Of a stretch of DNA of 64,000 nucleotides, positions 25,726 through 40,700 are shown piece after piece. Every line of letters starts with the position of its first letter. Positions within the stretch are counted from its first letter, which is position 1. This stretch comes from Thermoanaerobaculia bacterium (GTDB lineage: Bacteria; Acidobacteriota; Thermoanaerobaculia; Multivoradales; UBA5704). Both the position numbers and the translations under genes were made by a program. Under the pieces are notes generated by a model. That model saw nothing but the letters and a program-made list of their open reading frames with translations, was not told where the DNA came from and made no database searches. Location of the stretch: NCBI GenBank assembly GCA_035556715.1, contig DATMER010000050.1, positions 87,978 to 151,977 on the forward strand, read 5' to 3'.

Positions 25726-28700
25726 GTGATTGTCGGAGCCGAGGTCCGACCCTCGACGCTGGCCGGCCTGCTCAAGGCCCGTGCCGCGGAGGAGCCCGAC
25801 CGGGAGGCGTACGTCTTCCTGGCCGATGGACTGGCTGATGGACTTGCTGATGGAGATACCGAGGCGGAGCGCCTGACCTGGGGCGAGTTGGATGTCCGCG
25901 CCCGGGCCATTGCCTGGACGCTGCGGGAGTCGGTTCTGCCCGGTGAGCGGGCGCTGCTGTTGTACCCCCCGGGTCTGGATTTCGTCGCCGCCTTCTTCGG
26001 CTGCCTGTACGCGGGCGTGGTGGCGGTGCCCGCCTATCCTCCGCGGCTCAACGACCGTTCGCAGTCCCGCCTGCGGGCCATCGCCGCGGATGCCGCCCCC
26101 CGGGCCGCTCTGACCACGACCCAGATCGCCGGGTCCGCCGGGGTGCTCGCCGAGCGGGTCCCTGAGCTGGCCGCGGCGCGCTGGATCGCCACGGATGCCC
26201 TGTCCGCCGGAGCGCCGGACCTGCCCGACCCGGACCCGGACGCGGTCGCCTTCCTCCAGTACACCTCGGGCTCGACCTCGACCCCCAAGGGGGTGATGGT
26301 CACGCATGCCAATCTGGTCCACAACGAACGGATGATCGGCCAGGCGTTCGCCATGGACGAGGATTCGGTGGTGGTGGGCTGGCTGCCGCTCTACCACGAC
26401 ATGGGGCTGATCGGGAACGTGCTGCAGCCGCTCCACGCCGGAGCCCGCTGCGTGCTGATGTCGCCGGTCGCGTTTCTGCAGCGCCCCCGCCGCTGGCTGG
26501 AGGCGATCCACCGCTACCGGGGGACGACCAGCGGCGGCCCGAACTTCGCCTACGAGCTGTGCGTCCGGAAGATTCCGCCCGAGCAACGGGAGGGGCTCAA
26601 CCTGTCGAGCTGGCGGGTGGCCTTCAACGGCGCCGAGCCGGTGCGCGCCCACACGCTCGAAGCCTTCGCCGAGGCTTTCGCCCCCTGCGGCTTCCGCGGC
26701 GAGGCTTTCTACCCGTGCTACGGCCTGGCCGAGGCCACGCTGTTCGTGACCGGGGGCGATCCGGGGCGGGCGCCCCGCGTCGAGGACCGCCTGGTGAGCA
26801 GCGGCCATGCCTGGGACGCGCAGAGGATCGCCGTCGTCGATCCCGACACCCGGGAGGAGCTGCCGCCCGGGGAGGAGGGGGAGGTCTGGATCGCGGGTCC
26901 GAGCGTGGCAGCCGGCTACTGGGGCAACCCCGAGGCCACGGAGCGCGACTTCCGCGCTCGGCTGGCTAGCGGCGAGGGACCGTTCCTGCGCACGGGGGAC
27001 CTCGGTATCCTGCGCCACGGCGAGCTGTTCGTCACCGGCCGGATCAAGGATCTGATCATCCTGCGGGGACGCAACCACTATCCCCAGGACATCGAGCTGA
27101 CCGCTCAGCGGAGCCACGCGGACCTGCGGCCGGACGGCGCGGCCTTCGCCGTGGAGATTGAAGGCGAAGAGAGGCTCGTGGTGGTGCAGGAGGTGGAGCG
27201 GCGGCGAAGGGAGGGCCTGGACGAACTGGCCGCGGCCGTGCGCCAGGCAGTGGCGGAGGAGCACGAGGTCCAGCCGTACGAGGTGGTCCTGGTGCGAGCC
27301 GGCTCCGTGCCCAAGACCTCCAGCGGCAAGGTCCAGCGGCATGCCTGCCGGGCGCAGTACCTGGGCGGGGAGCTGACGGTGCTGGGCCGGAGCGTGATGG
27401 CTCCGTCTCCCGGGCGGGGGCGCCCTCTCCCGCGGAGCGGGGGAGGGAAGGGGAGGGGGTCTCCGGAGGACCTCATCCGGGATTTGGCCTCCGCAGCGCT
27501 GGGCCTGCCAGTCGAAGCTCTGGACCCGGACCGCCCCCTCACCGCGCTGGGTCTCGACTCCCTTTCCGCTGTGGAGCTCAAAGGCGGAATCGAGGCCGCG
27601 CTCGGGGTACCGATCCCACTCGCCGACCTCCTGGAAGGGGCGAACATCCGCACCCTCACCGCCAGGCTCCTGGAAGAGGGCCGGGTGGAGGAGGCGCCGC
27701 TTCCGTCGCCGGACCTGTCGCCGGACCAGCCGCTGTCGGTGGGGCAGAAGGCGCTCTGGTTCCTGGAGCGTCTGGCGCCCGAGGCGGGGGTCTACAACGT
27801 GGTCGTGGCTGCGCGGGTCCGGGATCTGGATGCGGAGGCTCTTCGCCGTGCCCTGGCTCTGCTGGTGGACCGCCACCCTGCGCTGCGCACGGTGTTCCCG
27901 ATGGTGGGGGACGAGCCGGTGCAGCGGGTGCTGCCGGCGGGGGAGGTGGACTTCGCGGAGGTGGGGACCCTGGCGGAAGAGGCCTGGCGCCCTTTCGACC
28001 TGGTCAACGGTCCCCTGCTGCGCGTCCGGATCTCCGGGGACGTGCTGCTCTTCACCATCCACCACATCGTTTCGGACTTCTGGTCCCTGGCCGTGATGGG
28101 GAGGGAACTGGGAGAGTTTTTTTCCCTGGGAGCGCCGGCATCCTGCCGGCCTTCCCTGCGCTACACCGACTTCGCCCGCTGGCAGGCGGAGCGGCTGGCC
28201 GGTCCAGCCGGGCAGAGAAGCTGGGCCTACTGGCGCAATGCCCTGGACGGAGTCCCCGACCTCGCGCTGACGCCGGACCGCCCGCGTCCGCCGGTGCAGA
28301 CCTGGCGGGGGCTGGCCCAGGCCGCGGAACTGCCCGCGGATCTCGCGGACGCTCTGCGGCAGCTCGCCGCCTCGCGAGGCGTCACCCTCTTTGCCGCCCT
28401 GCTCGCCGCCTTCCAGGCACAGCTCGGCCGCTACGCGAGCCAGGACGACTTCGCCGTGGGCACGCCCACCTCCGGCCGAGGAGCGCCGGAGTGGGCCGGC
28501 GTCGTCGGCTACTTCGTGAACCCCGTGGCGCTGCGGGCCGATTTGTCGGCCGATCCAAGCTTCCTGTCTCTCCTGGACCGGACGCGGCGGACCGTGCTCG
28601 CCGGGCTGGAGCACGCGGACTACCCCCTCGTCCTCCTGGCAGAGCGGCTGCGGCCGGTGCGCGACCCCGCCCGTCCGCCGCTGTTCCAGGTGATGCTCGC

Positions 28701-37700: not shown

Positions 37701-40700
37701 CGGCTCTCTGGATCTGCTGGAGCTGCCCTACGACCGCCAGCCCTCGCCGGCCACGGGCACCCGCGGCGGCCGGCGGGCGTTCGAGCTGTCCGCTGAGCTG
37801 TTTGGCCGGATGGCGGAGCTGGCGCGGCGGGACGGCTGGACCTCGTTCATGGCCCTGCTCGCGGGCTGGCAGGCCCTGCTCTCGCGCTACTGCGGGCAGG
37901 AGGACGTGGTCGTGGGCTCGCCCATCGCGAACCGCACCCGCCTGGAGCTGGAGGGGCTCATCGGCTTCTTCACGAACACCCTGGCCCTGCGGCTCGACCT
38001 GTCGGGCGATCCCTCCTTCTGGGAGCTGGGACGGCGAGTACGCGCCGCGGCCCTGAGCGCCTACGCGCACCAGGACGTGCCCTTCGAGAAGCTCGTCGAG
38101 GAGCTGCACCCGGACCGGCAAGCGGGGCGGAACCCGCTCTTCCAGACCATGCTCGTGCTCCAGAAGGCAGCCGTGAAGCCGGTCCTCCCGGGGATTGAGA
38201 CCGAGCTGCTGGACGTGGACACGGGCACGTCCAAGTTCGACCTGACCCTGATGCTCGTGGAGGAGGAGGACGGCGCCCTGGGAGCGCTGGAGTACGCCTG
38301 CGACCTCTTTGATCCCGGGACCGTGGACCGGATGCTCGGCCACCTCCGCACCCTGCTCGAAGCCGCGGTCGAGGACCCCGGCCGGCGTCTCTCCGATCTG
38401 CCGCTGCTCACCACTGCGGAACAATCGGAGCTGGCCGCCTGGAGCCGGCCGCTGACCCCCGAGCCGCCGAAGCTCCTGGTGCACGAAGGGGTGGCGGCCC
38501 AGGCGGCGCGGACACCCGGCGCGGTGGCGGTCGTGGATGGTGGCGCGAGCCTGACCTACGGCGAGCTGATGGAGCAGGCGAAGGCTCTGGCCCATCGGCT
38601 CCGTGATCTGGGCGTGGGGCCGGACGTGCCCGTGGGCCTTTTCTTGGAGCGCTCGCTGGACATGATGGTCGCGGTGCTGGGTGTGCTGGAGGCCGGCGGC
38701 GCCTACCTGCCGCTGGACCCCACCTGGCCGGCGGAGCGCCTGCGGATCATGCTGGAGGACGCCCACGCGCCTGTGGTGGTGACTCATGGTCCGATGGCGG
38801 GCAAGGTGCCGGGAGGCGTGGGGCAGGTCGTGCGCGTGGATGAGCCGGGAGCCCTCACCCCCGTCCCCTCTCCCGCCTCCCCACCCCCCTCGCCGGGAGA
38901 GGGGCGCCCCCACACATCCTTAAAGCCGGTTCCCCCCTCTCCCAGGGAGGGGGTTGGGGAGATGGGAGAGGGGGGCCAGGGGGGTGAGGGCTCCGGAGTC
39001 ACCCCCGACCACCTCGCCTACGTCGTCTACACCTCCGGCTCCACCGGCCGGCCCAAGGGCGTGGCCATGACGCACGCGGCCATCACGGCCATGCTCCTCT
39101 GGCAGCAGCGCACCTCGGCGGCCAGGGCGGGGCGCACGCTCCAGTTCACCTCGCTCTCCTTCGATGTCTCCTTCCAGGAGATCTTCTCGACTTGGTGGGC
39201 GGGCGGCACCCTGGTCCTGGTCTCCGAGGACGTGCGGCGCGACCCTCCGACCCTGACCCGCCTTCTGGCCGAGCAGCGCATCGAGCGCCTCTTCCTCCCG
39301 TTCGTGGCCCTGCAGCAGGTCGCGATGGCAGCGATCGAGGAGGGCGGCTCCGGCGCCTTTCCCTCCAGCCTGCGCGAGGTCATGAGCGCGGGCGAGCAGC
39401 TCTACGTCACGCCGCAGGTGGCGGAGCTGTTCTCGCGCCTGCCCGGGGCCGAGCTGCACAACCACTACGGCCCGTCCGAGACGCACGCCGTCACCTGGCT
39501 CGACCTTCGGGGGGATGCGTCGCGCTGGCCCGAGCGTCCACCCATCGGCGTGCCCCTGGACCACGCCCGTGTCTTCCTTCTCGACGCGGGCCTCCAGCCG
39601 GTTCCGGTCGGCGTGGCGGGCGAGGTCTGGGTGGGCGGCGCGGGACTGGCGCGGGGCTATCTGGGCCGCCCGCGCCTCACGGCCGAGCGCTTCCTCCCCG
39701 ACCCGTTCCACTGGGCCGAAGGGTGGAAGCCGGGGGACCGTCTCTATCGCACGGGCGATCTGGCGCGCCGCGGGCCGGACGGGGTCTTCGAGTTCCTCGG
39801 CCGCCGCGACTCCCAAGTGAAGATCCGGGGCCACCGCATCGAGCTGTTCGAGGTCGAGACCGCCCTGGCCCGCCATCCCGCGGTCCAGCAGGCAGCCGTA
39901 GCCGTCCGCGGCGAGACCTCGGGATCGCGGCGCCTCGTGGCGTATGTAGTTCCCCGCGACGGAGCGAAGCCTCCCACCTTCGGCGAGCTGCGGTCCTTCC
40001 TGGCCGCGAGCCTCCCCGATCCCATGGTCCCCACGGCCTGGGCGCTCCTCGAAGCTCTCCCCCTGACCCCCACGGGCAAGCTCGACCGCCGCGCCCTCGC
40101 CCGCGTCGAGCCCCAGGAGGGGAGCGAGGGAGGGCCCTTCGTGGGGCCGCGCACTCCCGCCGAGGAGCTGCTGGCGGCTATCTGGACCGAGGTGCTGGGC
40201 GTCTCCCGCGTGAGCGCCCTGGACGACTTCTTCCAGCTCGGCGGCCACTCGCTTCTCGCCACCCAGGTGGCGTCGCGCATCCGCGAGGCTTTCGGCGTGG
40301 ACCTGCCGTTGCGCCGGATCTTCGAGGCCTCGACGCTCTCGGCCATGGCCGGGGCCATCCTGGACGCGGCTCGGGGCGCAAATACCGCGCCCTCCGCGCC
40401 GCCGATCCGGCCGGTAGTGCGGACGGGGGACCTGCCCCTCTCCTTCGCCCAGGAGCGCCTCTGGTTCCTGGACCGCCTGCAGCCCGGCGGCTCGGCCTAC
40501 AACGTGCCGCTGGCCCTGACCCTCGAGGGACGCCTGGACCTGCTCCGTCTCGCTGCGGCGCTCTCCGGCGTCGTCCGCCGTCACGAGGTCCTGCGCACGG
40601 TCTTCGCGGAGCGCGACGGCTCGCCGGTCCAGACCGTGCTGCCGGCGGCGCCGGTGCCGGTTCCCGTGGTGGACCTCCGCGGTCTTGCCGGGGCCGCAGC

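Follow-up and report, generated by a model that had tools for sequence, protein, structure and literature searches.

In-frame copies of a BoxC/PIT-like repeat at permissive sites of nonribosomal peptide synthetase genes in a Thermoanaerobaculia bacterium

Introduction

The intrastrand triplex motifs known as TM_ECO, CCCTCNCCC-N3-6-GGGNGAGGG-N3-GGGNGAGGG, and earlier as BoxC or PIT, are a family of dispersed bacterial repeats (Holder et al. 2015, NAR, PMC4666352, where earlier work by Bergler, Bachellier and Hoyne/Maher is cited). That study counted 3610 motifs in 262 proteobacterial genomes and reported that in E. coli they are "always located intergenically", at times as inverted pairs, with no transposon association. 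As single-stranded DNA they form a class II purine triplex in vitro that was undetected in vivo, whereas RNA is unable to form purine-motif triplexes; they are linked to local sequence instability, and earlier work found no in vivo promoter, terminator or polymerase effect of the E. coli copies (PMC4666352). How these elements, described as strictly intergenic, move and what they do has been a question since the 1990s. Here we analyze GC-rich palindromic repeats in a 64,000-nt stretch from a Thermoanaerobaculia bacterium (contig DATMER010000050.1 of assembly GCA_035556715.1; the window, ~70% G+C, to whose whole length all positions refer), several of which lie in frame within nonribosomal peptide synthetase (NRPS) genes. 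By their block architecture, these repeats prove to be a variant of the published BoxC/PIT/TM_ECO family and not a new element, and they are probably tolerated passively where the host proteins are permissive.

Results

Five related repeats lie inside intact NRPS reading frames. Four are short (~50 nt), each hosted by an uninterrupted NRPS open reading frame (ORF), and one is a long inverted-pair copy (~145 nt); a second long copy is intergenic (Table 1). A pattern search of the window placed the core CCCTCTCC-N9-GGGGAGGG at 27423, 29472, 32578 and 62516, on the + strand every time, and the core pattern gave 10 matches against 0.56 expected, a count reached by 0/100 shuffles. The tail GGGGAGGG-NN-GGGGAGGGGGT (4 matches, 0.28 expected) follows the core in all four short copies, with three mismatches in the 62516 copy, and the sequence common to the four when aligned is GGGnGGnGGC-n-CCCTCTCC-yGCnnAGnr-GGGGAGGG-nn-GGGGAGG. 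Pattern counts and open ORFs bear out the original prediction, made from the DNA letters alone, that a repeated element occurs in frame within NRPS coding sequence, with three of its copies directly before the A3 core motif of an adenylation (A) domain, and the shuffles agree with it that the relatedness goes beyond GC-rich chance. A genome of ~70% G+C with low-complexity blocks could in principle hold unrelated G/C loops that look alike, or an ancient conserved linker peptide might be mistaken for a repeat. Such accounts have next to no probability and are refuted by the shuffles, by DNA conserved across reading frames, by a 38-nt core with a co-varying upper stem at at least 118 other loci, and by absence from the orthologous genes of L142, a contig described below. 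One core look-alike (35081-35105, TCCTCTCCCTGCACGAGTGGGAGGG) is a false positive, being conserved coding sequence that also occurs in element-free L142 and matches by chance. The idea that A1 and A2 were recently duplicated along with the element was also rejected: their flanks are only ~55–60% identical (an estimate from alignment), and the frames are 1 nt apart.

The conserved unit is DNA rather than peptide. One frame serves copies 1 and 2 (PLPRSGGGKGRGS, LPLLHRGGGQGRGS) and another copies 3 and 5 (APSPAERGRVGEGV, APSPAKQGRDGEES), so that the same DNA yields different residues. Copies 1 and 3 have an identical 25-nt hairpin core, and copy 5 has a degraded last G tract (GGGGAGGAG). The short element contains no stop in any of six frames in 115/127 copies sampled across genomes, and copy 4 is open in 1/3 sense frames. 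All five copies had been described as multiples of 3, yet the intervals then assigned to them measure 71, 55, 55, 135 and 66 nt, and no empty site defines their boundaries.

Copy 4 and the intergenic element at 12360-12526 represent a second, larger form, an inverted pair of related units. Their termini, CCCTCACCCC-NN-CCCCTCTCCC and GGGAGAGGGG-NN-GGGGGTGAGGGCTCCGGA, are common to both, as expected from the earlier observation that the end of the A4 copy recurs in an intergenic palindrome at 12361-12520. The intergenic element begins 1 nt past the stop codon of the ORF at 11754-12359 and fills the spacer to the next gene.

Both forms can be compared with the TM_ECO architecture block by block. 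The pyrimidine block CCCTCNCCC is present as CCCTCTCC(C/T) in every short copy and in each half of the two long elements. The first purine block, GGGNGAGGG, corresponds to GGGGGAGGG in the short copies, with one G opposite T, and to GGGAGAGGG, a perfect complement, in the long ones. The second purine block is GGGTGAGGG after 2–5 nt in the long copies, satisfying a relaxed form of the pattern; in the short copies it is GGGAGGGGG after 2–3 nt, a mirror of block 2 that does not match the literal pattern and that would still yield G·G/A·A triads in an antiparallel purine motif. Loop 1 exceeds the 3–6 nt of the published motif, at 7–9 nt in the short copies (a CGC/GCG stem plus a 2–3-nt loop) and ~20 nt in the long-copy halves. 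The relaxed pattern matches the left half of copy 4 (0 expected), and the four blocks at the termini of the window's long elements recur in an actual E. coli BoxC copy, CCCCTCACCCCGGCCCTCTCCCTGAGGGAGAGGGTTAGGGTGAGGGGG. A synthetic TM_ECO consensus found matches in 5409/5426 E. coli genomes (median 18 places per genome). BLAST of a window element against E. coli genomes returned nothing useful, Rfam at its gathering threshold gave no match anywhere in the window, and nothing relevant came from the literature when it was searched by raw sequence or for repeats within NRPS or adenylation domains. At large, the family is dispersed, multicopy and intergenic, and inverted pairs like the window's long elements occur at three further loci (L038, L048, L079); most of the window copies, unlike those described in E. 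coli, are intragenic.

The core is spread over many phyla. A one-genome-per-species scan with the pattern CCCTCTCC-N7-11-GGGGAGGG-NN-GGGGAGG found at least 118 loci in many phyla, with the core in Alpha-, Beta- and Gammaproteobacteria, Acidobacteriota, Planctomycetota, Chloroflexota, Deinococcota and others; among the matches listed are Azospirillum, Xanthobacter, Methylocystis/Methylosinus, Bradyrhizobium, Variovorax, Rhodanobacter, Thioalkalivibrio, Thermoanaerobaculia, Holophagales, Tepidisphaeraceae, Anaerolineae, Deinococcus, Abditibacterium, Pontibacter, Frankia and Polyangia/Kofleriaceae. Beyond the bases searched for, the 127 sampled copies share a 38-nt core, (c/t)CCCTCTCC-CGC-loop-GCG-GGGGAGGG-NN-GGGGAGGGGG(c/t). 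Its upper stem has at least three closing pairs in 70% of 54 distinct inter-arm segments, compared with 6% when shuffled, and includes a few compensatory variants (TGC/GCA, CAC/GTG, CAT/ATG). Apical loops are mostly TT, GAA or GCA; GCGAAGC and GCTTGC are classic, very stable DNA mini-hairpins.

The usual habitat of the element is intergenic. By a coding test based on G+C content at third codon positions, ~7/127 sampled copies (~5%) are intragenic and the rest intergenic; 74% lie within 400 nt of a stop codon, and genes on the opposite strand often end 5–35 nt past the element. Most copies on Azospirillum replicons are in unannotated intergenic DNA, and Methylosinus replicons also carry copies. 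Among 133 flanking ORFs there was no recurrent neighbour family or transposase. The intragenic copies found elsewhere lie between domains of real genes (Table 1). Targeting at megasynthases, which had been proposed for the window copies, is not supported, because in-frame copies also occupy linkers of UvrA-like, ThiC, FAD-oxidase, ABC-ATPase and acyl-CoA-ligase genes, the ~5% of sampled copies that are in frame lying in interdomain linkers of ordinary genes.

The 3635-aa polyketide synthase (PKS) of Methylosinus trichosporium OB3b that hosts a copy is annotated only as "SDR family oxidoreductase" and contains other repeat-like peptides (SPLGRAQQRSGRVRG, HLLPKGEG). Ten viral or proviral IMG/VR contigs (L132-L141) have the element core, some copies adjoining phage portal, prohead protease or tail genes. 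In three metagenome NRPS A domains (L124, L126, L127) the element stands directly before the A3 core, and the A2-to-A3 interval seems to lack ~20 aa or else holds two elements, perhaps through deletion between copies or because the genes are decaying.

Within the host proteins, the copies sit at interdomain or loop positions. Copy 1 separates the FAAL C-terminal subdomain from the ACP; copies 2, 3 and 4 lie between a strand ending ..LLD/..RVD and the A3 core (L/T)AY(L/V)(I/V)YTSGSTGRPKG of A1, A2 and A4; and copy 5 lies C-terminal to the Rossmann core of a methyltransferase (MT) domain that is itself within the C-terminal region of an A domain. No element copies were found in A3 or in the A domains of NRPS3 and NRPS4, in agreement with the prediction for A3 and NRPS3. 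The pre-A3 loop is a permissive site, as the prediction had also proposed: in module 5 it hosts an entire MT domain. Three of the five intragenic copies fall in loops that make up ~1.5% of megasynthase coding sequence, a concentration far from uniform; the proper null is the set of permissive sites, against which targeting and tolerance are not separable on present data.

Judged against homologous proteins, the short copies are replacements of native loop sequence and do not lengthen it. From the strand to LAY there are 23 aa in both A1 and A2, which are element-filled, and 22 aa in A3, which is element-free; the figure is 57 aa in A4 and 14–17 aa in the remaining A domains. Homologue P0004 has a loop of exactly the A1 length with the same flanks (LLDAD..QNLAY), the A2 loop aligns to the solved LgrA structure with one gap and equal length, and the native TioS (5WMM) segment to which copy 5 aligns exceeds it by 4 aa. 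The FAAL-ACP linker with copy 1 is 8–11 aa shorter than in 30 homologues and has lost, relative to them, a conserved L(S/T)RxxLxAxxPxER stretch. The net length change of the short copies is thus −11 to +1 residues. Copy 4 is the only one of the five intragenic copies that adds net length, amounting to an insertion of ~34 aa (~102 nt) relative to its 20 closest homologues, none of which has the copy. The copies had been said to add loops, which holds for the A4 copy and not for copies 1, 2, 3 and 5, which are length-neutral or shorter; and because the short copies are length-neutral replacements, the absence of the element from A3 does not show, as had been argued, that it is dispensable.

The element-coded peptides are rich in Gly, Pro, Arg and Ser and are probably disordered. 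An AlphaFold model of the A4 region (mean predicted local distance difference test score, pLDDT, 86.6) renders the copy-4 stretch as coil with pLDDT 45–62, between strands 168–171 and 231–237 and beside a core above 94. The copy-4 residues are predicted to be disordered, a low-confidence coil in an otherwise confident fold.

Comparison with two syntenic contigs indicates that the copies at A1, A2 and A4 are derived. The first, L142 (ENA ERZ25039475 contig_3575, 2.06 Mb, long-read), is syntenic with window positions 28255-48815 at 75–79% nucleotide identity and has no element copies at A1, A2 or A4; its alignment blocks break exactly at the element sites. The second, L128 (JGI Ga0068862_100000779, an independent metagenome), is syntenic with 21580-30791 at 81–88% identity; copy 2 is present there, its site and frame unchanged, with 53/59 nt identical. 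All differences in copy 2 fall within the apical stem and loop, and the apical stem is lost in the window. At the copy-1 site, L128 has a decayed version in the same frame, 30 nt shorter and identical at 29/42 positions (by-eye comparison). Because L142 is without them and L128 has copy 2, the sequence comparison shows the A1, A2 and A4 copies to be derived rather than ancient linkers, and, on the same evidence, copies 1 and 2 (those checkable in L128) are older than one species split. Measured by the refuting condition of the original prediction, the outcome is mixed: the absence from L142 excludes ancient linkers, and the presence of the A1 copy in L128 means that this copy is no recent insertion. 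No element-like peptide was found in 208 pre-A3 loops retrieved from 240 homologues (0/208).

The conservation of copy 2 can be gauged from one orthologous pair. At first, second and third codon positions the window and L128 have identities of 0.877, 0.914 and 0.655, and the 53/59 match of copy 2 exceeds the third-position rate (P = 1.7e-5) and differs less clearly from the overall rate (P = 0.06).

These contigs also bear on whether the intragenic copies might be mis-joins at repeats in a metagenome assembly. The source is probably metagenome-assembled, and ~50-nt repeats may confuse assemblers; the frames are nevertheless open, domain order is colinear with long-read L142 across all modules, and copy 2 lies at the same site in the independent metagenome L128, so that an assembly artefact is very improbable.

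The same protein sites take up different repeats in different lineages. The Thermoanaerobaculia orthologues L119 and L120 carry another in-frame G-rich hairpin element of ~72 nt (GGGyGGTGGTGCCTCCCyCCCTGGG..GGTAGGGAGyGGGGGAGGTCAGGwGGGGGGTT), in the FAAL-ACP linker of L119 (~700-780) and the A1 pre-A3 loop of L120 (~5500-5640). In L142, the A2 pre-A3 loop (~4900-5010) has its own 9-nt tandem repeat, (GCGAACGAT)n, encoding (AND)n-like residues; the loop is therefore also hypervariable by slippage. The A1 loop of L142 was considered as a very old decayed copy and set aside, its faint resemblance being indistinguishable from GC-rich chance similarity.

Predicted structures differ between copies and between RNA and DNA. 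Sense-RNA hairpins of the short copies have predicted energies of −24 to −34 kcal/mol (ViennaRNA). With the G-quadruplex (G4) option, a G4 is predicted over the hairpin for copies 1–3 (−39 to −46 kcal/mol) and none for copy 5, whose last G tract is degraded. By this folding model, the canonical G4 motif (G3+ N1-7, four tracts on the sense strand) is favoured in copies 1–3 and not in copy 5, so the earlier claim of sense-strand G4 motifs holds, as a prediction, for copies 1–3 only. Folded as DNA, the short copies give hairpins of about −12 to −16 kcal/mol (z −1.3 to −2.1) by nearest-neighbour folding, which yields hairpins only; the long-element hairpins are predicted at −100 kcal/mol (copy 4) and −126 kcal/mol (intergenic, 12360-12526). 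The structure demonstrated in vitro for the family is a purine-motif triplex in single-stranded DNA, not a G4.

Two other repeats were seen in the window. An intergenic array of ~21-nt units at 3380-3760, with TGACGCGAC / GTCGCGTCA in both orientations and many overlapping inverted repeats, looks like a binding-site cluster or another repeat family. At 49476-49824, just downstream of the PKS gene, a 21-nt tandem repeat, GGTCCGAGCCGTCCGTACCGC, has ~12 copies with 63% matches, and inverted copies lie upstream of it.

Table 1. Repeat copies, host genes and related features (window positions unless another sequence is named)
Feature	Positions	Strand	Basis or details
Short copy 1, FAAL-ACP linker of NRPS1	27412..27467	+	pattern match; blocks GGGCGGGGGC-G-CCCTCTCC-CGCGGAGCG-GGGGAGGG-AA-GGGGAGGGGG-TCTCCGGA; peptide GRGRPLPRSGGGKGRGSPE
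Short copy 2, loop between strand LLLD and A3 core NTAYLIYTSGSTG of A1	29461..29516	+	peptide GRGLPLLHRGGGQGRGSLP
Short copy 3, pre-A3 loop of A2	32567..32616	+	peptide EAPSPAERGRVGEGV
Long copy 4, inverted pair of BoxC-like units, pre-A3 loop of A4	38851..38997	.	peptide ..LTPVPSPASPPPSPGEGRPHTSLKPVPPSPREGVGEMGEGGQGGEGSG..
Short copy 5, C-terminal part of NRPS4 MT domain, aa ~1198-1219	62505..62560	+	peptide REGAPSPAKQGRDGEESS
Intergenic long element, inverted pair	12360..12526	.	termini common to copy 4
Host gene NRPS1, 6216 aa, FAAL-ACP-(C-A-T)x4-C-A(MT)-T	25726..44376	+	ORF and domain search
Pre-A3 loop of A5 holding a whole MT domain, between strand AVCLD and DDFAYVVHTSGSTG	42172..42985	+	domain search
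PKS module of cluster	44373-48824		biosynthetic cluster member
NRPS of cluster	51396-58958		biosynthetic cluster member
Host gene NRPS4, C-A(MT)-T..., extends past window end	58904..64000	+	ORF and domain search
In-frame host: 3635-aa PKS, ACP-KS linker (L122)	Methylosinus trichosporium OB3b plasmid pOB3b1, NZ_CP023738.1 85679-85719		
In-frame host: PKS (KR, DH)	outside window		
In-frame host: UvrA-like protein	outside window		
In-frame host: FAD-linked oxidase	outside window		inverted pair
In-frame host: ThiC	outside window		
In-frame host: DrrA-like ABC ATPase	outside window		
In-frame host: DUF350 protein	outside window		

Discussion

The reading we favour, at a probability of about 0.65, is that BoxC/PIT-type repeats are passively tolerated at permissive sites of NRPS genes; it builds on family identity, the derived status of the A1, A2 and A4 copies, their variable-loop location and the neutral net length of the short copies, which the comparisons above establish. 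The repeat unit consists of the pyrimidine block CCCTCTCC, an additional short stem closed by a GNA or TT loop, the complementary purine block GGGGAGGG and, after 2–3 nt, a second purine block GGGGAGGGGG mirroring the first, with an upstream G run in acidobacterial copies; the long form is an inverted pair of such units. Intergenic DNA just 3′ of genes is the normal home of the family in many phyla. Copies that came into the NRPS genes would have persisted only where the protein accepts nearly any sequence, namely the FAAL-ACP linker, the hypervariable surface loop preceding the A3 (P-loop) core and a variable MT segment. Translation runs through them, and with six open frames in the short form only the frame must be kept. 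We infer that they arrived by some copy mechanism, after which either the loops would have been trimmed by local deletions or decayed copies overwritten through short-patch gene conversion. The instability reported around the motifs fits both routes, and refreshment by conversion would fit the 25-nt hairpin core that window copies 1 and 3 share exactly. The copies would have no function for the enzyme.

Several observations weigh against passive tolerance following simple insertion. In one protein, 3/5 A domains bear copies, each in the corresponding ~66-nt loop. When metagenomes were scanned for the element tail with DNA encoding YTSG(S/T)TG within the next 10–40 nt, 9 loci matched; 8 are true elements directly before the A3 core, all three frames are represented, and the hosts include three orthologous FadD-like acyl-CoA ligases along with several further NRPSs. 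Such recurrence could point to a preference for the site and not just to tolerance. In each of the window's four short copies, the G-rich strand is the sense strand. Length-neutral replacement at three or four sites is not expected from simple insertion, no target-site duplication was seen at the five intragenic sites, and neither a mobilising enzyme nor an empty site at high identity was found, which leaves the mechanism of arrival unproven. Judging from the one orthologous pair, the conservation of copy 2 above the third-position rate is not predicted by pure neutrality. Zero net length change, and a conserved copy 2 beside a decayed copy 1, are unexplained by simple insertion plus neutrality; loop trimming through deletions linked to the motif could account for them, as could gene conversion that refreshes decayed copies from intact ones. 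Candidate duplications flanking copies 1 (TCTCC(C)GG) and 4 (CCGG(G)AG) were rejected, since the 3′ TCCGGA also occurs at the intergenic copy and so is part of the element.

One possibility is that the copies are kept for their nucleic-acid structure, as a hairpin or RNA G4 at which ribosomes pause between folding units, a replication-stalling DNA triplex or G4, or shared ~50-nt homology patches immediately 5′ of the highly conserved A3-core DNA that favour recombination between modules. The common sense orientation with G4 predicted for copies 1–3, the identity of copy 2 (53/59 nt, compared with 65.5% at third positions), the recurrence before the A3 core in independent genes and three frames, and the family's link to local genomic instability (PMC4666352) would all fit. 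Against this, copy 1 is decayed in L128, copy 2 has lost its apical stem in the window and copy 5 its last G tract. The enzymes, moreover, work without the copies, which are missing at A1, A2 and A4 of L142 and in the 208 homologous loops; ~95% of the sampled family is intergenic; no in vivo promoter, terminator or polymerase effect is reported for E. coli copies (PMC4666352); and the conservation comes from a single pair. We consider a structural function unlikely.

A rival that speaks directly to length is that the repeats spread by copy-and-replace, in which short-patch gene conversion or stalled-fork template switching overwrites ~50 nt and leaves length unchanged, which would allow the repeats to colonise coding loops. 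This would account for a net change of ~0 at copies 2, 3 and 5 and for the lack of target-site duplications; the pristine window copy 1, with its 25-nt core equal to that of copy 3 while the L128 counterpart retains 29/42 positions, fits refreshment. Yet copy 4 and the L120 element clearly add net length, orthologues differ in loop length in any case so that equal length may be coincidence or insertion plus deletion, and there are four cases only, with no empty site at high identity. Copy-and-replace is a minority prospect, and passive tolerance is still preferred. A bolder version, in which BoxC-type repeats repeatedly overwrite hypervariable loops (possible because the elements are open in six frames) and plant identical 50-nt patches beside A3-core DNA, is doubtful; if true, these patches would be instability hotspots and provide homology for inter-module exchange.

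The finding is real and more ordinary than originally proposed, a known repeat family taking part in a known phenomenon, that of in-frame selfish repeats. Translated BoxC-type copies, their recurrence before the A3 core of ANL enzymes, length-neutral loop occupation and a host range of many phyla appear to be undescribed. Translated copies are datable events, with orthologues that have the copy, a decayed copy or none, and the protein serves as an exact ruler for length change; they could therefore reveal how BoxC/PIT repeats spread. For NRPS engineering, the copies mark sites that tolerate 17–57 unrelated residues (the pre-A3 loop, FAAL-ACP linker and MT segment). If they promoted recombination between modules, which is hypothetical here, they would also bear on the origin of NRPS diversity.

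Among known systems, Rickettsia palindromic elements (RPEs; Ogata et al. 2000, 2002; reviewed in PMC10969869) are a fair functional analogy, as the original prediction held, being selfish palindromic repeats in frame within unrelated genes, at fold-compatible positions and with presence polymorphic between relatives. Our repeat likewise occurs in several genes and sites, in frame and at fold-compatible positions. RPEs are, however, ~100–150 bp long with one conserved peptide per family and a fixed frame, whereas the short element here is ~50 nt, open in six frames and used in three, and its short copies replace loop sequence rather than add to it; the two would not be expected to be related in sequence. 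The REP/REPIN repeats with their RAYT (Bertels and Rainey 2011, PMC3116915) are also short GC-rich hairpins, mostly 3′ of genes and often inverted doublets, and differ in being lineage-specific, the present core being common to several phyla. No RAYT lay beside the sampled copies among the 133 flanking ORFs, a sample in which a single RAYT per genome is easily missed. The REP consensus has a GTAG head, which the present elements lack. A miniature inverted-repeat transposable element was rejected, as these are defined by terminal inverted repeats with a target-site duplication and there is no duplication at the five sites, the 3′ TCCGGA belonging to the element. Labby et al. reportedly described, in 2015, adenylation domains interrupted by a tailoring domain that lies between the A2 and A3 core motifs; the insertion point is the same loop, and module 5 here has its MT domain there, although those inserts are functional domains and ours are repeat-derived, probably disordered peptides.

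The closest match is BoxC/PIT/TM_ECO. The likeness extends to the same block architecture with near-identical blocks CCCTCNCCC and GGGNGAGGG, a short loop and a second G block; to dispersed multicopy occurrence, singly or as inverted pairs, with conserved stems and variable loops; and to the lack of a linked transposase and the presence of decayed and deleted copies in relatives. The differences are that E. coli copies are reported as always intergenic while 5/6 window copies are intragenic and translated; that the third block of the short variant exactly mirrors its second (GGGAGGGGG in place of GGGNGAGGG), a T faces G in the pyrimidine arm, and loop 1 holds an additional 3-bp stem closed by a GNA or TT loop; that acidobacterial copies are extended by a 5′ G run and a 3′ TCTCC/TCCGGA tail; and that the host range is wider than in the proteobacterial TM_ECO count of PMC4666352.

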